Shown here: piece by piece, positions 3,627-56,918 of the stretch | How positions within the stretch are numbered: position 1 is the first letter of the stretch | How the letters are laid out: the number at the start of each line of letters is the position of its first letter | NCBI GenBank assembly: GCA_900754075.1 | Contig: CAAEBN010000017.1 | Span: 10,688 to 74,687 of the forward strand | Source of the DNA: an uncultured Collinsella sp. | GTDB taxonomy: Bacteria > Actinomycetota > Coriobacteriia > Coriobacteriales > Coriobacteriaceae | Length of the DNA: 64,000 nt | Reading direction: 5' to 3' | The notes under the pieces: model-generated | Told to the model about the DNA's origin: nothing | The model's database searches: none | Seen by the model: the letters and a program-made list of their open reading frames with translations, nothing else | Translations under genes and position numbers: made by a program

Positions 3627-6413
3627 ATGGTCCGGGCGGTTTTCTTATACCGACGCGACATGATGGGACGTGGTATGGCAGCAACGGATATCGAGCGCGG
3701 ACTCTCGACCGCCGAGGTCGAGGAGCGCATCGCCGCCGGTAAGATCGACCGCAACATGGAGCTCAAGACCAAGTCGGTCCGCGAGCTCATCATCGAGAAC
3801 CTCTGCACGCTGTTTAACTTGATCAACGTGGTCTTGGCGATTTTGGTGTTGCTGACCGGTTCGTTTAAGAATCTGACGTTCCTGTTCGTGGTGTTCTTGA
3901 ACACGGCAATTGGCGTCATCCAGTCCATGCGTTCCAAGCGGATGGTCGACAAGCTTACGCTGCTCACCTCTAAGAAGGCCATCGCGGTGCGCGACGGCGC
4001 CGAGGTGGAGCTCGATCTGGACCAGATCGTTCTCGACGATATCATTCGCCTGGGGCGCGGTGACCAGATTCCCGCCGACGCCGTGGTAGTGTCGGGCGAG
4101 GCGCTCGTCAACGAGAGCCTGCTGACGGGCGAGAGCGACCTCATTAAGAAACAGCCCGGCTCCGAGCTCATGAGCGGTAGCTTTATCGACTCGGGCCTGC
4201 TGCGCGCCCGCGTGATCCATGTCGGCGCCGATAACTACGTGGCAAAGATCAACAACGAGGCCAAGTACGTCAAAAAGGTCAATTCCGAGATCATGAACGC
4301 GCTGAACGCCATCGTGCGGTTCGCGAGCATTATCATGATCCCGCTTGGTCTGGCGCTCTTTGCCTCGAGTGTGAGCGAGCTGTGGGATGCCGCGGGAACC
4401 CCGGGCGATAGCGCGCTTTCCTGGTGCTTCTCCGAGCTGCTGGCCGGTCGCGTGCCTTCTTCGGCGCTGCTCTCCACGGTGGGTGCCCTGCTGGGCATGA
4501 TTCCGCAGGGCCTGGTGCTGCTGACCTCGTCGGTTCTCGCCATCGCCACGGTGCGCCTGGCGCGTCGCAAGGTGCTGGCACAGCAGCTCTACTGCATCGA
4601 GACGCTCGCGCGCGTCGACGTTTTGTGCCTGGACAAGACGGGCACCATTACCTCGGGCCGTATGGAGGTCGAGGGTACCTACCCGCTGCCTGTTGAGGGT
4701 GTTGGCTTTGGCGCGGACTCGGACGAGGCTGCTGTTCCCGTCGAGACCACGGTGCTCGACTTTGCGCTTGCCAACGTGGCACGTGCGACCTTGGCAGACG
4801 CCAACGAGACCTGCCAGGCGCTGCTCAACTACTACGCCGATCGTCCGGTCGAGGTGTCCGAGCCGCTGTCGGTCATTCCGTTCTCGTCGTCCAAAAAGTG
4901 GAGCGGCGCGTCGTTTGCGCAGGGCTCCTATGTGATGGGCGCCGCGCAGTTTGTGCTCTCGGACCGTGTGTTTTCACAGGTCGAGAACCGTGTCGCCGAG
5001 CTTGCCGATACCTGCCGCGTGCTTGTGGTGGCGCGCGTGGACGGCTTTACGCCCGACGGTGATATGGTGGGCGAGGCCGAGCCCGTGGGCTTTGTGACCA
5101 TCCGCGATGAGATTCGCACCTCGGCAGCCGAGACTATCGGCTACTTTAACGAGCAGGGCGTGACCCTCAACGTGATCAGCGGCGACGACCCGCGTACGGT
5201 GTCGTCGATCGCGCGCGTGGTGGGCGTGCCGGGCGCCGACGCTTACGTGGACGCTACGACGCTCGATACGCCGTCCAAGATTGATGCGGCAGTGGACCGT
5301 TACCACGTCTTTGGGCGTGTGACGCCGCAGCAGAAGCGCGAGCTCGTACAGGCGCTCAAACGCCGCGGGTACACCGTGGCCATGACGGGCGACGGCGTCA
5401 ACGACGTACTGGCGCTCAAGGAGGCCGACTGCTCCGTGGCGATGGCCGCCGGCTCCGATGCCGCGCGCAATGTGGCCGAGATCGTGCTCGTCGATAACGA
5501 CTTTGCCTCGATGCCCGCTGTGGTGGCCGAGGGCCGTCGTTCTATCAATAACCTGCAGCGCTCTGCCGCGCTCTTTCTGACCAAGACGCTGTTCTCGATG
5601 GGCCTGGCGGCGCTGTGCATCGCGCTGCCGCCGTATCCCTTTGAGCCCATTCAGATGACGCTCATCAACTTCTTCTGCATCGGCGCGCCGGGATTTGTGC
5701 TGGGCCTGGAGCCCAACAACGCCCGCGTGAAGGGGTCGTTCTTGACCAACGTGCTTAAGCGTGCGCTGCCGGCGTCGATTGCGGTCATTTTGGCTGCGGC
5801 TCTCGATATCTTTGTGGCACGCGTATTTGGCTTTAGCCAGCTTACGCTTTCGACCATGTGCCTGCTCACGTCGTGCGCGGCGAGTGTCAGCCTGATCTGG
5901 CGCATCTCGCAGCCGCTCACGCCCTTGCGCGTGGTGCTTTTCGTGTTTGTCGTCGCCGGTATTTTGACGGGCGTTATCGGGTTCCCGGGACTGCTGTCCA
6001 TCGCCAACTTGTCGATGGGTCAGATGGTCATCTTGGCGGTTATCGTCGTCATTACCTGCGCGGTTTTCTTTAAGCTTGCCACGATGATGGACTCGCTTAA
6101 GCCCCGTCGCCGTCATGCGGCTACCGGCTTTGGACGTGGCGTGCGCGTTCGCCTGGGTCGCGGCGGCGGCAAGGTGAGCTCGACGGGATCGACCGCCGAG
6201 CGTTTTGCCAAGCGCGTTGCCGCCGATATGGCGCAGCGCCGTGAGAGCCGCACTGCTCGCGAGGCCGAGGCACACGCACTCGAGGGCGTGGCCCAGACCC
6301 AGCCCAAGAAAAAGAAGAGTGCCGGTGCCAAGCGCTCCCGCGTGACCAAATCGGCCCAGGGCATCAAGGTATCGATGCCCAGCAAGAAGAATAAGCCCGT
6401 AAAGAAAGACTAG
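3627..6413 (+). CDS. cation-transporting P-type ATPase (P2-type, Ca2+/Mg2+ family) with basic C-terminal tail
   Basis: Phosphorylation motif DKTGTIT, hinge MTGDGVNDVLALKEADCSVAM, about 10 predicted TM segments and a GLSTAEVEERIAAGKIDRN N-terminus. The true start is probably ATG 3660 or 3675, because the ORF-track start lies only 27 nt after the tRNA. The C-terminal ~110 aa are Lys/Arg-rich. Confidence 0.85.
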   Translation: MVRAVFLYRRDMMGRGMAATDIERGLSTAEVEERIAAGKIDRNMELKTKSVRELIIENLCTLFNLINVVLAILVLLTGSFKNLTFLFVVFLNTAIGVIQSMRSKRMVDKLTLLTSKKAIAVRDGAEVELDLDQIVLDDIIRLGRGDQIPADAVVVSGEALVNESLLTGESDLIKKQPGSELMSGSFIDSGLLRARVIHVGADNYVAKINNEAKYVKKVNSEIMNALNAIVRFASIIMIPLGLALFASSVSELWDAAGTPGDSALSWCFSELLAGRVPSSALLSTVGALLGMIPQGLVLLTSSVLAIATVRLARRKVLAQQLYCIETLARVDVLCLDKTGTITSGRMEVEGTYPLPVEGVGFGADSDEAAVPVETTVLDFALANVARATLADANETCQALLNYYADRPVEVSEPLSVIPFSSSKKWSGASFAQGSYVMGAAQFVLSDRVFSQVENRVAELADTCRVLVVARVDGFTPDGDMVGEAEPVGFVTIRDEIRTSAAETIGYFNEQGVTLNVISGDDPRTVSSIARVVGVPGADAYVDATTLDTPSKIDAAVDRYHVFGRVTPQQKRELVQALKRRGYTVAMTGDGVNDVLALKEADCSVAMAAGSDAARNVAEIVLVDNDFASMPAVVAEGRRSINNLQRSAALFLTKTLFSMGLAALCIALPPYPFEPIQMTLINFFCIGAPGFVLGLEPNNARVKGSFLTNVLKRALPASIAVILAAALDIFVARVFGFSQLTLSTMCLLTSCAASVSLIWRISQPLTPLRVVLFVFVVAGILTGVIGFPGLLSIANLSMGQMVILAVIVVITCAVFFKLATMMDSLKPRRRHAATGFGRGVRVRLGRGGGKVSSTGSTAERFAKRVAADMAQRRESRTAREAEAHALEGVAQTQPKKKKSAGAKRSRVTKSAQGIKVSMPSKKNKPVKKD

Positions 6414-6501: not shown

Positions 6502-6599
6502 GTGAGCGGCGATGTTGAATTGGTGCCTTGCGCTTGTGGGGCCGTGTCGATGTTATGCTCTAACCTCAATTGTTTGAATTGCTTCGGAAAGAGGATGCC

Positions 6600-7754
6600 G
6601 TGATCTGCCCGCATTGCTTAAAGAACATCGAGGACGGCGCCTCGTTCTGCCCCTATTGCAACGCATACGTTGGTCCTGGCGATGGCCCCGAGCATACCGA
6701 GTTCGTGTTCTGCGACGGCTGCGGCGCCCGTCTGTCCCCGCATGACCGTACCTGTCCCAAGTGTGGACGCCCCGCGCCGGGCATCCTTTCCGAGGACGCG
6801 GCCGCATCCGACCTGGCCGCAGGGCGCACGGCCGGCTTTCCGCGCCTGACGCAGGAGCAGATCGATACCGAGGTACCCCACGCGCCGGCATCTGCCGCCG
6901 CGGTGCTCTCCGACGCAGCCGACCCCAACGAGACCTGCGTGCTGCCTGCCTTTGATAAGGACTTTGGCATCCCCAAGGTCGATATCCCCACGCCGGTGTC
7001 CCTGCGCGATGGTGCTCAGCCTAAAAAGCAAAAGCCCAAGCGCAAGGTCCATCCCGACGAGGATGCCTATCACAAGCACAAGCGCCATATCCCCAAACCG
7101 CTCATCGTCATCGCGGTGCTCGCCGCCGTGTGCGGTGGTGCCTATTGGTTTGTGACTGCCGATCCCATGGGCGTCATGCCCGGCTTCTGCGACCAGTTTG
7201 GCCAGGCCGCCAAGACCACCTTCCCGTCGCGCCAAAAGGGCGAGGCAACCGAGAAAGAGTCCACGCAAGAGGATGCGTCCGAGGTCGTTCAGGAGGAGAC
7301 CGTCTTAACCGACGACCAGCTCTACACCAGGCTCGACGGCCTGTACCAGACCATCGTGTCGTACAGCGACGATGACCAGATCGGCGAGGTCATCGATTCG
7401 TTTAATAACGGCTATCTGCGTACGCCGCTCTCCACCCGCCAGGAGCTGTCGCAGAGCGCCTATGCCCTGCGCGATCAGATTAAAAAGACCCAGGATGAGC
7501 TCAATAACCTCAAGGTTCAGGACGACACGGTCTATGCGGAGGACATCGATCATCTAAAGCAGCTTGCCCAGTGGATGTACGAGCGTGTCGACGTGATCTG
7601 CCAGAGTTGGGATATCTCGCTGTCCATTCCCGACGGCGAGTCGCTGAGCGCCCGTCAGAGCGAGATCCTGGCGCCCATCGCACAAGGCGGCAACAGCGCG
7701 CTTAACCAGTACGACGCCAACGTGAGCGCCTGGAGGCCGCAGCAGCGTTCGTAA
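6600..7754 (+). CDS. membrane-anchored hypothetical protein with N-terminal double zinc-ribbon
   Basis: Two CxxC…CxxC ribbons (CPHCLKN…CPYCNAY and CDGCGAR…CPKCGRP), a Pro/Ala/Lys-rich linker, one TM helix (LIVIAVLAAVCGGAYWFV) and a ~200 aa extracytoplasmic domain with no recognisable motifs. Start is probably GTG 6600 (SD GGAAAGAGGA) rather than the ORF-track start at 6570. Confidence 0.6.
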   Translation: MICPHCLKNIEDGASFCPYCNAYVGPGDGPEHTEFVFCDGCGARLSPHDRTCPKCGRPAPGILSEDAAASDLAAGRTAGFPRLTQEQIDTEVPHAPASAAAVLSDAADPNETCVLPAFDKDFGIPKVDIPTPVSLRDGAQPKKQKPKRKVHPDEDAYHKHKRHIPKPLIVIAVLAAVCGGAYWFVTADPMGVMPGFCDQFGQAAKTTFPSRQKGEATEKESTQEDASEVVQEETVLTDDQLYTRLDGLYQTIVSYSDDDQIGEVIDSFNNGYLRTPLSTRQELSQSAYALRDQIKKTQDELNNLKVQDDTVYAEDIDHLKQLAQWMYERVDVICQSWDISLSIPDGESLSARQSEILAPIAQGGNSALNQYDANVSAWRPQQRS

Positions 7755-52796: not shown

Positions 52797-55445
52797 CTAG
52801 CAGACGGCGTAATCCTGAGGCTCACGGCCGTAGTAGGCGTCCAGGTAGAGCTCCTTGATCTCGCTCATGAGCGGGTAGCGCGGGTTAGCGCCGGTGCACT
52901 GGTCGTTGAATGCCTGCTCGGTCATCTCGTCGAGGGTGTCGAGGAAGTACTGCTCGTCAACACCGTAGTCGGCGATGGTCTTCTTGACGCCGATGAAGTC
53001 CTTGAGCTCCTCGAGCTTCGTGATGAAGTTCTCGAAGACCTCCTTGTCGTCCTTGCCCTCGATGCCGCAGTACTTGGCCATCTCGGCGTAGTTGTGCAGC
53101 GCGTTGGGGTAAGGATACTGGGAGAAGGTGCCCATCTTGACGGGAGCCTCGGCGGCGTTGTAGCGCATGACGCGGGTCAGGATGACGGCGTTTGCGAGAC
53201 CGTGGGGCAGGTGATGGAAAGCGCCGAGCTTGTGGGCCATGGAGTGGTTGAGGCCCAGGAAGGCGTTGGCGAAGGCCATACCGGCCATGCAGGAGGCGTT
53301 GTGCATCTCTTCGCGGGCATGCGGGTCCTTGGCACCGTTCGTGAAGCTGGAGGGCAGGTTCTCGAAGACGAGCTTGGCAGCACGCTCGGAGAGGCCCTTG
53401 GTGTAGTCGGAAGCCATGATGGAGACGTAGGACTCGATGGCGTGGGTCATGACGTCGATGCCGGAGGCAGCGGTCAGGCCGCGCGGGGCGGTCATGCAGT
53501 TGTCGGCGTCGACGATGGCCATGTTGGGGAGCAGCGCGTAGTCGGCGAGCGGCCACTTGATGCCGGTCTCCTTGTCGGTGATGATGGCGAACGGCGTGCA
53601 CTCGGAGCCGGTACCCGAAGAGGTCGGGACGGCGACGAAGTAGGCCTTCTTGCCCATCTCGGGGAAGGTGAAGATACGCTTGCGGATGTCCATGAAGTCC
53701 ATGGCCATGTCCTCAAACTTGCACTCGGGGTGCTCGTACATCATCCACATGATCTTGCCGGCGTCCATAGCGGAGCCACCGCCGACGGCGATGATGACGT
53801 CCGGCTCAAAGAGAGCCATCTGCTTGGCGCCGCGACGTGCGCACTGCAGCGACGGATCGGGCTCGACGTCGTAGAAGCAGTCGTGGGCGATGCCCATCTC
53901 GTCGAGCTTGGCCTCGATGGCGCGGGTGTTGCCATTCTTGAAGAGGAACTGGTCGGTGACGATGAAGGCGCGCTTCTTGCCCATGACGTTGCCCAGCTCG
54001 TCGAGGGCGACGGGCGTGGAACCCTTCTTGAAGTAGACCTTCTCGGGAGCGCGGAACCACAGCATGTTCTCACGGCGCTCGGCCACAGTCTTAACGTTGA
54101 TCAAGTGCTTCACCCCAACGTTCTCGGAGACGGAGTTGCCGCCCCAGGAGCCGCAGCCCAGGGTCAGAGACGGCTTCATGCCAAAGTTGTACAGGTCACC
54201 GATGCCGCCGTGCGAGGACGGGGTGTTGATGACGATACGGCAGGCCTTCATGACGTGCTCGAACAGGCTGATCTTCTCGGCCTGGGCGGGGTGCACGTAC
54301 AGAGAGGCGGTGTGGCCCGGGCCACCGGCGAGCACCAGGTGCTCGGCCTTGTCGACGGCCTCCTGGAAGTCCTTGGCGTGGTACATGGCCAGGACCGGGG
54401 AGAGCTTCTCGTGGGAGAACTCCTCCTTGGCGGGGTCGGTGGAGGTGACCTCGGCGATCAGGATCTTGGTCTTGGCGGGAACCTCGATGCCGGCGAGCTC
54501 GGCGATCTTGGCGGCAGCCATGCCGGGGATGCGGTGATCGAGAGCGCCGTTCTTGAACATGGCGGCACGCAGGGCCTCCATCTCGGCACCCTGCTTGACG
54601 AAGTAGCAGCCGCGCTTCTGGAACTCGGCCTTGACCTGGTCGTAGATGCTGTCGATGACGGTCACGGACTGCTCGGAAGCGCAGATCATGCCGTTGTCGA
54701 AGGTCTTGGAGTGGATGATGGAGTTGACGGCGAGCAGCACGTCGGCGGTGTCGTCGATGACGACCGGGGTGTTACCGGCGCCAACGCCCAGGGCGGGCTT
54801 GCCCGAGGAGTAGGCGGCCTTGACCATACCCGGGCCACCGGTGGCGAGGATGATGTCAACGTCGCGCATGACCATGTTGGTCAGCTCAATGGAGGGGACA
54901 TCGACCCAGCCGATGATGCCCTCGGGGGCGCCGGCCTTGACGGCGGCGTCAAGCACGAGCTTGGCGGCGGCGATGGTGCACTTGGCGGCAGCCGGGTGCG
55001 GGGAGATGATGATGGCGTTGCGGGTCTTCAGGCAGATCAGCGTCTTGAAGATCGCGGTGGAGGTGGGGTTGGTCGTCGGGATGACGGCGCCCACGATGCC
55101 GATGGGCTCGGCGATCTTGGTGATGCCGTAAGCCTCGTCGCGCTCCAGAACGCCACAGGTCTTGGTGTTCTTGTAAGCGTTGTAGATGTACTCTGCGGCG
55201 TAGTGGTTCTTGATGACCTTGTCCTCAAGAACGCCGCGGCCGGTCTCCTCGATGGCCATCTTCGCCAACGGGATACGAGCCTTGTTGGCGGCCATGGCGG
55301 CTTCATAGAAGATCTTGTCGACCTGCTCCTGCGTGTACGTAGCAAAAAGCGCCTGGGCCTCTCGCATCTGAGCGAGCTTGGCCTCAAGCGCCTCTACGTT
55401 GTCCACAATTGCGGGAGTAGTGTTTTCCGGTGACTTTTTCACCAT
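52797..55445 (-). CDS. adhE: bifunctional acetaldehyde-CoA/alcohol dehydrogenase
   Basis: 882 aa; N-terminal ALDH domain and C-terminal iron-containing ADH domain with the typical AdhE linker. Confidence 0.95.
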   Translation of the reverse strand: MVKKSPENTTPAIVDNVEALEAKLAQMREAQALFATYTQEQVDKIFYEAAMAANKARIPLAKMAIEETGRGVLEDKVIKNHYAAEYIYNAYKNTKTCGVLERDEAYGITKIAEPIGIVGAVIPTTNPTSTAIFKTLICLKTRNAIIISPHPAAAKCTIAAAKLVLDAAVKAGAPEGIIGWVDVPSIELTNMVMRDVDIILATGGPGMVKAAYSSGKPALGVGAGNTPVVIDDTADVLLAVNSIIHSKTFDNGMICASEQSVTVIDSIYDQVKAEFQKRGCYFVKQGAEMEALRAAMFKNGALDHRIPGMAAAKIAELAGIEVPAKTKILIAEVTSTDPAKEEFSHEKLSPVLAMYHAKDFQEAVDKAEHLVLAGGPGHTASLYVHPAQAEKISLFEHVMKACRIVINTPSSHGGIGDLYNFGMKPSLTLGCGSWGGNSVSENVGVKHLINVKTVAERRENMLWFRAPEKVYFKKGSTPVALDELGNVMGKKRAFIVTDQFLFKNGNTRAIEAKLDEMGIAHDCFYDVEPDPSLQCARRGAKQMALFEPDVIIAVGGGSAMDAGKIMWMMYEHPECKFEDMAMDFMDIRKRIFTFPEMGKKAYFVAVPTSSGTGSECTPFAIITDKETGIKWPLADYALLPNMAIVDADNCMTAPRGLTAASGIDVMTHAIESYVSIMASDYTKGLSERAAKLVFENLPSSFTNGAKDPHAREEMHNASCMAGMAFANAFLGLNHSMAHKLGAFHHLPHGLANAVILTRVMRYNAAEAPVKMGTFSQYPYPNALHNYAEMAKYCGIEGKDDKEVFENFITKLEELKDFIGVKKTIADYGVDEQYFLDTLDEMTEQAFNDQCTGANPRYPLMSEIKELYLDAYYGREPQDYAVC

Positions 55446-55587
55446 TTGTGTCTCCTTGCGATCGGAGATTTACCCTACGCCTTGCATGATAGCAAGAAAT
55501 TATTCGGCGAACGGTAAGATTCCCGTAAAAGGCACACTAAAACGCTTCAACTAAATGAACCGTTTCAACTAATGCTGCATTGCTCCG

Positions 55588-56625
55588 CTCATTGGGGACA
55601 GACTTACATGAGTGCATTTACTCATTTGGGACAGACATTGTTTTGCCATTTTGCCGCTCTGGGCTTGTTATTACCGCTCATCGGATATAAATAGGTCACA
55701 GGCTCAGCATTTCGCGTTGCTTCTCTCCTTTTAGGCGTTGCCTGTACAGTTTCGGAAGGAGAGATTATGCCCCGATGCGCCCGCGCCGTTTCGATCACCG
55801 GCTATTACCATGTCTTTGACCGCGGTAACTCCAAACAGATTATTTTTTGAAGATGACTCCGACCGCTATCGCTTCTTATCGGATATCTCGGAGAGGTTCG
55901 TGCGCTATGAAGTGGCGGTGTTGGCTTGGTGCCTTATGGACAACCACTTTCATTTGATGGTTGATGACCCATATGACAACCTTTCAAAGGCGATGCAGTG
56001 CGCATTGACGGCATATGCTAAGTATTTCAATGGAAAAACGGGGAGAACGGGGCATCTGTTTGACAATCGCTATTCGCGGGTCGCGGTTGAGTCGGACACG
56101 CAGGCAGTGCAGCTGCTCGATTATATCCATCTCAATCCCGTAAAAGGCGCGCTTGACTCACTCGAAGCGTACCGTTGGTCAAGCTACAAGGCATATCAGT
56201 TGGGCTATGATCCCTTTGACATCTGTGATGCGGCCCCTATGCTCGATATTGTCGGAGGCTCCCGTCGCTATTGCGAGCATCTCAAGGAAGTTGCCGAGCG
56301 CATCTGGTCGGTGGAGGTCCTTCCACGCCGGCGGATTCCCGATGAGGAGGCCTTTTCCGTTGCGCGCGAAGTCCTGCCGAGCATAGATCCTGCGCTGCTC
56401 AAGGCTCTGCCACGCCCCGAACGCGATGCCTGTCTTCTGAGGCTCAGGCGGGCGCATCTCACGGTCAAGCAAATTGCCCGTATCACCGGTATCGGCGCTA
56501 CAAGCGTGACCAAGGCCACCATAGGCTGGAATGAGGCAGCGTGAGGCAGGGGCGAACCGCTGCCGGCACGCGTTATGTCTGTCACAAATGCGTGAAAACA
56601 CTCATGTAAGTCTGTCCCCAATGAG
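55588..56625 (+). mobile_element. IS200/IS605-RAYT-like element: HuH-Y1 transposase gene flanked by 27-bp perfect terminal inverted repeats (REPtron-like)
   Basis: CTCATTGGGGACAGACTTACATGAGTG at 55588-55614 is the exact reverse complement of 56599-56625. Imperfect inner subterminal repeats at 55622-55641 and 56574-56593 (CATTTGGGACAGACAT / ATGTCTGTCACAAATG). Encloses the transposase ORF. Confidence 0.8.
55767..56544 (+). pseudogene. tnpA: IS200-like HuH tyrosine (Y1) transposase with C-terminal HTH, disrupted by +1 T in a T6 homopolymer
   Basis: ATG 55767 (SD GGAAGGAGAG) opens MPRCARAVSITGYYHVFDRGNSKQIIF, the canonical Y1 N-terminus, then hits TGA at 55848. The family-conserved continuation (EDDSDRY…HFHLMV…LDYIHLNPV…) is in the +1 frame (ORF-track 55738..56544). 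A T5 tract instead of T6 at 55843-55848 would restore a 259-aa ORF. Confidence 0.75.
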
Positions 56626-56628
56626 TGC

Positions 56629-56657
56629 AAAAAAGCGCCCTCCACATGAGAGGACGC
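56629..56657 (-). terminator. intrinsic terminator after rpmB (minus strand)
   Basis: On the - strand: GCGTCCTC-TCATGTG-GAGGGCGC followed by TTTTTT. Lies 4 nt from the IS right end. Confidence 0.7.
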
Positions 56658-56729: not shown

Positions 56730-56918
56730 TTAGGAGCGCGCAACCTTGCCGGACTTGAGGCAGGTGGAGCAAACGTTCATCTTGCGACGGTGACCATCGA
56801 CGACGACGTAGACGCGCTGGATGTTGGGGCGGAACTTACGGTTGGTGACGCGGTGAGAGTGGCTGATGGAGCGACCGGCAACGGGGTGCTTACCGCAAAC
56901 TTCGCAAACTTTGGACAT
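56730..56918 (-). CDS. rpmB: 50S ribosomal protein L28
   Basis: MSKVCEVCGKHPVAGRSISHSHRVTNRKFRPNIQRVYVVVDGHRRKMNVCSTCLKSGKVARS. ATG 56918..56916 follows AAGGAGGG; the ORF-track start at 56990 is an extension. Confidence 0.95.
   Translation of the reverse strand: MSKVCEVCGKHPVAGRSISHSHRVTNRKFRPNIQRVYVVVDGHRRKMNVCSTCLKSGKVARS

Follow-up and report, generated by a model that had tools for sequence, protein, structure and literature searches.

The 64-kb window analysed here, i.e. the whole stretch of DNA taken from an uncultured Collinsella sp. of the C. aerofaciens complex, contains between rpmB and adhE a gene of the HuH-Y1 transposase family that is bracketed by perfect inverted repeats. The question raised by this locus is whether a mobile element was recently inserted there, or whether the gene and its repeats are old residents of the site. 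A previous reading made from the letters alone (hereafter the sequence-only reading) had favoured a complete, recently inserted IS200/RAYT-like element. According to the results presented below, the element is most probably a TIRtron, that is, a single-locus, vertically inherited TIRYT gene between inverted arrays of its cognate hairpin, with an enzyme of TnpA-Y1 subclass 2.1, a RAYT-like HuH-Y1 nuclease and ligase of single-stranded DNA. The cognate hairpin repeat has a stem of 5–8 bp and a loop of 13–15 nt carrying GGGGACAG. This is a known kind of element, which seems not to have been described in a Collinsella host and does not belong to IS200/IS605. The terms were coined for RAYT-like genes with flanking inverted repeats ("TIRtrons") and for their enzymes ("TIRYT") by Di Nocera et al. 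2013 (PMC3733652).

The element comprises 1038 nt and has a GC content of 53.5%, compared to about 61% for the window. It is located between adhE (52797–55445, minus strand, ATG at 55445) and rpmB (56730–56918), whose terminator was detected on the minus strand. The left end begins 142 nt upstream of the adhE ATG, and the right end lies 3 nt short of the A-run of the rpmB terminator, so that the position between terminator and adhE given by the sequence-only reading is confirmed. The features, given as positions of the window, are as follows.

55586–55614, plus strand: left outer hairpin unit CG-CTCAT-TGGGGACAGACTTAC-ATGAG-TG, holding the 27-nt perfect repeat (55588–55614) and the GGGGACAG motif
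55619–55640, plus strand: left inner degenerate unit TACTCATTTGGGACAGACATTG, 33 nt downstream of the outer unit
55767–56544, plus strand: TIRYT gene (HuH-Y1 tyrosine transposase with a putative C-terminal helix-turn-helix, HTH), disrupted in the window; GGAGG ribosome-binding site at about 55756–55760
55843–55848, plus strand: T6 run with the +1 frameshift; TGA of the short frame at 55848–55850
56573–56594, minus strand: right inner degenerate unit, reverse complement CACGCATTTGTGACAGACATAA
56599–56627, minus strand: right outer hairpin unit, reverse complement CACTCATTGGGGACAGACTTACATGAGTG, holding the 27-nt perfect repeat (56599–56625)
56629–56652, minus strand: rpmB intrinsic terminator (stem 56652–56638 plus T-tail), the right boundary common to all TIRtron-derived alleles at the locus

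A perfect inverted repeat is formed by the 27-mer CTCATTGGGGACAGACTTACATGAGTG, with one copy on the plus strand (55588–55614) and the other on the minus strand (56599–56625). Outside the element it was not found in the window even at 3 mismatches (chance expectation 0), and no hairpin unit was present in the window outside the element. When the two ends are aligned with each other, the inverted repeat extends to 55 nt (55586–55640 versus 56573–56627), of which 47 (85%) are identical. The 16-mer CTCATTKGGGACAGAC is present as two direct copies per element end with a spacing of 33 nt; the outer copies are perfect and the inner ones degenerate (55621–55636; 56577–56592, 2 mismatches). The outer units are capable of forming hairpins with the 15-nt loop TGGGGACAGACTTAC on a CTCAT/ATGAG stem, which at the right end is lengthened to CACTCAT/ATGAGTG. 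With respect to this anatomy, the sequence-only reading was correct: the terminal repeats, the imperfect inverted pair inside them, the CTCAT...ATGAG hairpin in each terminal repeat and the single HuH-Y1 gene, represented by the one PF01797 (Y1_Tnp) gene between the ends, were all recovered. No target-site duplication is visible at the element ends. Rfam contains no family for the ends or the spacer, and a scan of viral contigs with the inverted repeat gave 0 matches.

To which genomes and loci is the gene restricted? Ten long contigs were found via the exact RpmB protein, and their common order is pyr operon, pyrR, rpmB, spacer, adhE. Seven of these spacers contain the Y1 gene, and the other three, with a length of 503–517 nt, have kept both outer inverted repeats and approximately 190 nt of the gene interior. 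The commonest intact protein (P0002, 9882 member sequences) is 91% identical to that of the window and was found only at the rpmB-adhE locus; in look-ups of proteins 91%, 70%, 56%, 55% and 44% identical to the window's, all genes adjoined rpmB. Enzymes with 70%, 56% and 55% identity occupy the orthologous spacer in more distant species (rpmB 95–99%, pyrR 88–89% identity), and each of them is accompanied by inverted repeats of its own that are organised around GGGGAC. The Y1 gene is a single-locus gene that is vertically inherited across the C. aerofaciens complex and more distant Collinsella-like genomes.

The divergence of the copies bears on the time of residence. Over 26 window-type copies, the median synonymous divergence (dS) amounts to 0.33 (range 0.12–0.48), which is about twice that of pyrR and pyrB (0.1–0.2) and well above that of adhE (about 0.05). 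The median ratio of nonsynonymous to synonymous divergence (dN/dS) amounts to 0.11, with 0.07 for the catalytic and 0.17 for the C-terminal half; where it is intact, the gene is under purifying selection. A median dS of 0.33 together with a dN/dS of about 0.11 argues for long residence and not for a recent hop, and the overall pattern fits long residence combined with fast co-evolution of enzyme and repeat. The recent insertion assumed by the sequence-only reading is thus not upheld; in almost every relative sampled, the spacer holds the element or what decay has left of it.

The extent of this decay became visible in a census of metagenomes, which were scanned with a 20-mer taken from the conserved sequence upstream of adhE. 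The 120 loci obtained were classified by a script, a few of them being borderline cases, and alleles differing within the 20-mer, e.g. L270, are missed. Full-length elements were present at 28 loci, internally deleted ones of at least five classes at 37, gene-less doublets (left unit, 5 nt, right unit) at 24 and single-unit remnants at four. Thirteen contigs end inside the element, two loci carry another TIRtron type (L018, see below) or a decayed remnant of it, and an unrelated cassette of about 4.1 kb was found at 11. A single locus, from a more distant species with an rpmB of 91.5% identity, has no repeat at all. An empty site inside the complex, the search for which had been suggested together with the sequence-only reading, was not seen among the 120 metagenome loci. 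The doublets at the rpmB locus demonstrably arise by in-place collapse of the master element and not by transposition.

The window itself carries a disrupted allele. The frame starting with the ATG at 55767 reads MPRCARAVSITGYYHVFDRGNSKQIIF and reaches the TGA at 55848 after 27 codons, with the remainder in the +1 frame; if one T is removed from the T6 run, a 258-aa protein as in the relatives results. For comparison, 35 other window-type loci were used, 26 of them full length. All 26 full-length copies have T5, and the 258-codon frame is intact in 25, the remaining copy being split elsewhere. The gene of the window stops early because the T-run at 55843–55848 has six T, and the designation of the element as complete has to be revised. 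This copy is either a fresh pseudogene or the product of a homopolymer sequencing error. A programmed +1 frameshift at UUU-UGA, comparable to prfB, would restore the exact protein; it was rejected, as T6 occurs in none of the 26 other copies and no upstream stimulator resembling a Shine-Dalgarno sequence is present. Leaky full-length expression by rare +1 slippage is possible in the window.

The protein is described, and its residues are numbered, on the repaired 258-aa reading frame. It matched PF01797 (Y1_Tnp) with 32.9 bits (cut-off 23) and the NCBIfam family REP_Tyr_transpos with 54.5 bits, the latter below its cut-off of 80. W54, H60 and H62 (HuH, H60-F-H62), Y119-x-H121-x-N123-P124 and W137-S138-S139 are invariant among 29 aligned homologues, whose identities reach down to 38%. 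The catalytic tyrosine is Y119, and the spacing from H60/H62 to Y119 is 57–59 aa. A single-sequence search of the PDB gave nothing relevant; a search with a profile made from the 29 aligned homologues had E. coli TnpA_REP (4ER8, E=2e-5) as top match. The same protein was the best Foldseek match (4er8_A, E=1.8e-6, template modelling score 0.71) of an AlphaFold2 model with a predicted local distance difference test (pLDDT) score of 89, followed by the TnpA proteins of ISDra2 and IS608 (E about 5e-4 to 1e-3). In the model, residues 192–250 form a helical C-terminal domain (pLDDT about 90). Bac_DnaA_C, HTH_23 and HTH_28 did not match the C-terminal region, and the sequence weakly suggests an HTH. 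Of the label IS200/RAYT-like, the second half is retained, with 4ER8 as closest solved relative and a hairpin that is dispersed extragenically, and the IS200 half is abandoned.

This dispersal was seen when one genome per species was scanned with the 17-mer CTCATTGGGGACAGACT, which yielded at least 120 stretches, nearly all from Collinsella. Among the matches listed, the rpmB locus accounts for 21 of 120 stretches; the other 99 lie elsewhere as single units, tandems 33 nt apart or convergent inverted pairs 42–75 nt apart, and none of these 99 contains a Y1 gene. The 126 site instances among the matches listed fall into 8 clusters of similar flanks, some with 2–3 neighbouring sites, which corresponds to roughly ten (about 8–12) conserved extragenic sites per genome. 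As to copy number, a further check proposed with the sequence-only reading, the gene was found only at rpmB-adhE and the hairpin unit at about ten sites. Hairpin cores lie in stop-free frames of at least 120 codons less often than random positions do (35 of 139, compared to 1834 of 1980) and are therefore regarded as extragenic. Many dispersed units abut terminators, for example that after the rplX gene of an annotated C. aerofaciens replicon, and the number of units at orthologous dispersed sites varies from 1 to 3. A search of the 64-kb window for orthologues of the dispersed sites, aimed at an empty one, gave no overlap. Since REPIN-like doublets can form by in-place collapse, some of the dispersed doublets may mark places where a master copy once stood, instead of having arisen by transposition.

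The dispersed unit has the form (CA)CTCATT-GGGGACAGACTTA-AATGAG(TG), with GGGGACAGACTTA as the loop. A unit folds with -4.8 kcal/mol (z = -3.7), and a doublet folds into one long hairpin with -35 kcal/mol (z = -14). The whole left end, folded as single-stranded DNA, gave an unconvincing z of -1.4, since its units can pair mutually in alternative ways. Covariation was evaluated with 103 distinct units. Stem pair 1-29 is CG in 49 and UA in 23 units, and pair 3-27 is CG in 54 and GC in 22. The covariation score of 0.230 compares with 0.168 in shuffles (reached by 0 of 500) and with 0.016–0.124 for slid registers; as the sequences are related, this supports the hairpin, short of proof. The arms of the rpmB-locus doublets covary as well (GGGGACAGGC with GCCTGTCCCC, GGGGACGGGC with GCCCGTCCCC, GGGGATCGAC with GTCGATCCCC). 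The 5' foot of the 103 distinct units is CAC, TAC, CGC or TAG, followed by TCATT, and neither a GTAG nor a CGTC tag occurs at the foot. A match to GGGGWSAS is contained in the repeats of the window (GGGGACAG), of L018 (GGGGTCAG) and of L015 (GGGGACAC).

Beside the window type, a gene flanked by terminal inverted repeats is found in the L015, L018, L026, L273 and L274 types. The flanks of L018 are as close to those of the window as in any member of the complex (adhE 97.7%, pyrR 96.8%, spacers 92–93%), and its enzyme of 297 aa is 44% identical to the window's and accompanied by hairpins of the form GGTGCA-TTGGGGTCAGGTTACTT-TGCACC. Among 5.8 billion proteins, the nearest relatives of the L018-type enzyme are the window-type enzymes (44–46%). 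A second TIRtron, the P0069 type with 45% identity, lies between a MatE gene and a CobA-family gene and is flanked by TAGTCRTTGGGGACGTTC... units, and a third paralogue (34%) is situated between nifU and sufU. Relatives on plasmids and phages are only distant (at most 40% identity).

Several features of known systems can be compared with these results. The repeats described by Di Nocera et al. contain the motif GGGGWSAS, and some belong to families of moderate abundance whose members occur singly, as dimers or in groups (PMC3733652). The window agrees in the RAYT-like HuH-Y1 gene, in the flanking terminal inverted repeats with GGGGACAG and in the modest family of singles, dimers and groups formed by the window-type repeats. 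Most TIRYTs were assigned to TnpA-Y1 subclass 2.1 by Quentin et al. 2018 (PMC6006769), who found this subclass in 14.9% of the strains analysed. Its proteins are long, carry an HTH at the C-terminus and a serine motif behind the catalytic tyrosine, and have a HuH-to-Y distance of about 58–67 aa. The window-type protein is likewise long and has the serine motif W137-S138-S139 after the tyrosine; the HTH is weakly supported by the sequence. There are also differences: each repeat unit here is a hairpin with a covarying stem, with two units per end, and the Collinsella repeats are plainly REP-like, whereas no REP-like sequences were found near subclass 2.1 genes (PMC6006769). RAYT groups with flanking 16-mers only about a dozen times per replicon, an abundance comparable to that of the window-type hairpins, were described by Bertels et al. 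2017 (PMC5581495). Collinsella or Actinobacteria are mentioned neither in PMC3733652 nor in PMC6006769, and the literature searched contained no later TIRYT work and no Collinsella REPs. To our knowledge, a decay series at a fixed locus and the swap of one TIRtron type for another have not been described.

The element also shares properties with REPtrons: a single-copy, vertically inherited Y1 gene, inverted palindromic units that flank it and are also dispersed, some as inverted doublets that can adopt a single long hairpin, and TnpA_REP as closest solved structure by profile and fold. It differs from them by the lack of a GTAG/CGTC tag, by about ten sites instead of hundreds of copies (>100 REPs), by a conserved motif in the loop, by a putative extra HTH domain and by an NCBIfam score below the cut-off. 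REPtrons, in which a RAYT (TnpA_REP) is combined with REP, BIME or REPIN sequences, are reportedly known from E. coli and Pseudomonas through the work of Nunvar in 2010, Bertels and Rainey in 2011, and Ton-Hoang and Messing in 2012. Gene-less doublets of 60 nt (left unit, 5 nt, right unit) with covarying arms, both at the rpmB locus and dispersed, resemble miniature inverted-repeat transposable elements and REPINs; those at the rpmB locus, however, stem from in-place collapse. With IS200/IS605, the HuH-Y1 catalytic fold and hairpin DNA signals at the ends are shared. Members of this family (IS608, ISDra2, IS200) have no terminal inverted repeats and dissimilar ends with subterminal hairpins, encode a dimeric TnpA of about 130–150 aa, insert beside a specific tetra- or pentanucleotide, and are multi-copy and often plasmid-borne. 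In contrast, the window element has terminal inverted repeats, a single locus and a 258-aa two-domain protein.

By analogy to the biochemistry of IS608 and TnpA_REP, the enzyme presumably recognises the hairpin in its folded form on single-stranded DNA, with replication forks as the probable place of action, and would cut and rejoin the DNA through Tyr119 with the HuH metal site. Hairpin-bounded segments, and not the enzyme's own gene, would then be moved or reshuffled. The putative HTH probably helps to read the conserved GGGGWSAS motif of the loop, and two units 33 nt apart, i.e. about three helical turns, would permit cooperative binding. Since the enzyme is not made in full in the window, the element there should be inert unless a paralogue acts in trans.

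Some observations weigh against the TIRtron interpretation. The gene is lost in about three quarters of the sampled loci and is therefore dispensable. Cleavage and mobilisation are assumed by homology, and the literature searched contained no biochemistry of any TIRYT. The C-terminal 60 residues or so gave weak matches, to the winged-helix regulator PH1932 (E=0.009, profile) and to Sigma70_r4_2 (E=0.08). The site counts per genome are indirect, as they derive from the at least 120 stretches, and some ten sites are far fewer than for classical REPs. No orthologous dispersed site without a hairpin was found at two neighbouring sites in ten genomes, all of which were occupied. Furthermore, the units next to the gene and those at the dispersed sites belong to different sublineages: TTACATGA (TTAC, gene-flanking) has 30 occurrences at rpmB loci against 3 elsewhere, and TTAAATGA (TTAA, dispersed) has 0 and 144, respectively. 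There is therefore no sign of recent movement.

This absence of recent movement would also be expected of a domesticated host factor that moves no DNA and instead acts on the hairpins for the host, for instance by processing or protecting them at forks or by regulating via the HTH. The hairpins would then be elements next to terminators with a structural role or a role in stabilising mRNA. For RAYTs in general, Bertels et al. (PMC5581495) argued in favour of domestication, and a single-copy, vertical gene under strong purifying selection as well as hairpin sites that are conserved between species and often abut terminators would suit such a role. A host function would, however, be dispensable, as most of the loci sampled have lost the gene by deletion or carry it in disrupted form. 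Moreover, the HuH and tyrosine residues are invariant, as would be expected of an active nuclease, and the variation between 1 and 3 units at orthologous sites implies ongoing turnover at the DNA level. This explanation is therefore considered unlikely.

A further explanation is that the spacer is a hotspot of cassette exchange or integration, by a target-specific process or by hairpin recombination, in which case the presence of the gene would reflect a site preference and not ancient descent. The L018 allele, with its near-identical flanks, 44% identical enzyme and different hairpins, speaks in its favour, as do the unrelated 4.1-kb cassette at the same left boundary in 11 metagenome loci and the left boundary ...GCGTTTYAAC, which is common to all alleles, the TIRtron-derived ones also ending at the A-run of the rpmB terminator. 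On the other hand, the window-type enzymes are the nearest relatives of the L018-type enzyme, and the 70%, 56% and 55% identical enzymes occur in correspondingly distant species; both fit enzymes that descended and diverged at the site, with alleles exchanged later by way of the homologous flanks. In addition, no empty site exists inside the complex among the loci surveyed, and a hotspot without ancient descent appears distinctly improbable. It is somewhat less improbable, though still rather doubtful, that the spacer is a dedicated exchange site at which TIRtron lineages, with enzymes 44–56% identical and covarying hairpins of their own, and even unrelated cassettes replace each other between flanks of about 98% identity. 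If this were true, it would mean either target-specific integration by Y1 enzymes beside a terminator hairpin or hairpin-mediated swapping of cassettes.

That an autonomous insertion sequence (IS), either IS200/IS605-like or of a new kind with terminal inverted repeats, has recently moved into the spacer is hardly credible: the 27-nt perfect repeats around a single transposase-family gene and the reduced GC content suit it, but the gene occurs at one locus only in every genome and contig examined, the copies there differ by dS values of 0.12–0.48 without a visible target-site duplication, a 258-aa enzyme closer to TnpA_REP and terminal inverted repeats are foreign to IS200/IS605, and plasmid and phage relatives do not exceed 40% identity, with the inverted repeat absent from viral contigs.

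The TIRtron thus remains the favoured interpretation, and the influence of the element on its neighbour adhE has to be considered. The relevant features are the following.

55446–55571, minus strand: conserved adhE upstream region, to ...CGTTTCAACTA; left boundary of the variable cassette, outside the element, kept in every allele type
55536–55575 (window), 3716–3751 (L018) and 6560–6600 (L001): adhE upstream palindrome, kept in all alleles and in distant species

Between the adhE start and ...CGTTTCAACTA, a stretch of 126 nt is conserved together with every cassette type, including the 4-kb one, and partly in the repeat-free distant species; the 142 nt adjoining adhE are likewise kept irrespective of the cassette upstream. 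The presumed adhE core promoter lies inside the 126 nt, as does an imperfect palindrome that is conserved, ACGCTTCA-N6-TGAASCGT. As these 126 nt are conserved with every cassette, the element probably leaves the adhE promoter unchanged. An effect on the core promoter, or on leader and promoter architecture as considered in the sequence-only reading, is unlikely to judge from this conservation. In the window, the imperfect palindrome or direct-repeat pair upstream of adhE reads AAACGCTTCAACTAA / AACCGTTTCAACTAA, and in relatives ACGCTTCA-N6-TGAAGCGT; it is a candidate operator. The repeats upstream of adhE were also considered as a part of the element, which was rejected, as they are conserved in alleles without any TIRtron. 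A scan for consensus promoters gave only chance-level matches inside the gene and was uninformative on the adhE or TIRYT promoter. The motif GGCTCAGCA occurs 50–70 nt upstream of the start codon in three TIRtron types (window 55700–55715; L015 about 3930–3945; L026 about 3932–3945), is missing in the L018 type, and may be a shared promoter or leader signal. In L008 and L096, the first 1 kb of adhE is 90% identical to the window (dS about 0.3), compared to 98–99% (dS about 0.05) in all others, which suggests a recombinant adhE allele adjoining the variable spacer.

Some observations concern other alleles of the locus. The cassette of about 4.1 kb (GC 50%; about 40–4100 in L230, oriented from the adhE side) was also found in L151, L188, L201, L210, L212, L235, L256, L258, L265 and L266. 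It encodes a 788-aa protein, whose C-terminal hydrophobic stretch and basic tail suggest a cell-surface protein, and contains transposase-like ORF fragments. The alleles with this cassette have a different rpmB terminator and no hairpin repeats, and they share the left boundary. One genome (L009, 7369–8625) carries between the TIRtron and adhE a 418-aa transposase with HTH_21 and rve domains, i.e. a DDE-type IS. In L168 (oriented, 1–200), the rpmB-locus doublet is joined rightward to the flank tagggatagaaaaaggcccgggtgcc..., which normally borders another dispersed hairpin site; the junction results either from a repeat-mediated rearrangement or from a chimeric metagenome contig. The 900-kb replicon NZ_OY725717.1 (L270–L272) is labelled "C. 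aerofaciens plasmid 6" and is chromosomal DNA, since it carries ribosomal-protein operons, adhE, and pyr and suf genes. Its rpmB locus carries an allele of the L018 type that has decayed, yet two intact window-type hairpins are present downstream of rplX, and the hairpins thus persist without a cognate gene at the rpmB locus.

Two further observations concern the dispersed sites. A second hairpin family, TAGTCRTTGGGGACGTTCTTAAACGACTA, flanks the P0069-type TIRYT gene (L026, 3790–3872 and 4793–4852), and its units are interleaved with window-type units at dispersed Collinsella sites (L044, L073, L100) in BIME-like mixed clusters. The contig CAVKNR010000305.1 (L129), labelled Sodaliphilus sp., carries Collinsella-type hairpins with flanks identical to a dispersed Collinsella site; this is probably a contamination of the bin and not an occurrence in Bacteroidota.

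With respect to annotation, the gene in the window should be regarded as a pseudogene or a homopolymer error, and the element provides no evidence of recent horizontal transfer. TIRYTs represent a large, biochemically untouched branch of the HuH-Y1 enzymes. In the rpmB-adhE locus, an abundant bacterium of the human gut offers at a single site a natural series of alleles that are intact, frameshifted, shortened by internal deletion, reduced to the doublet or replaced. In addition, the hairpin population is small enough to be counted, with about ten sites, and gene-flanking and dispersed units differ by one fixed base. This would be a convenient system to ask whether a TIRYT mobilises its hairpins and what becomes of the repeats after the loss of the master gene. 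Most worth following up are the allelic series and the replacement at the same site by a divergent TIRtron.

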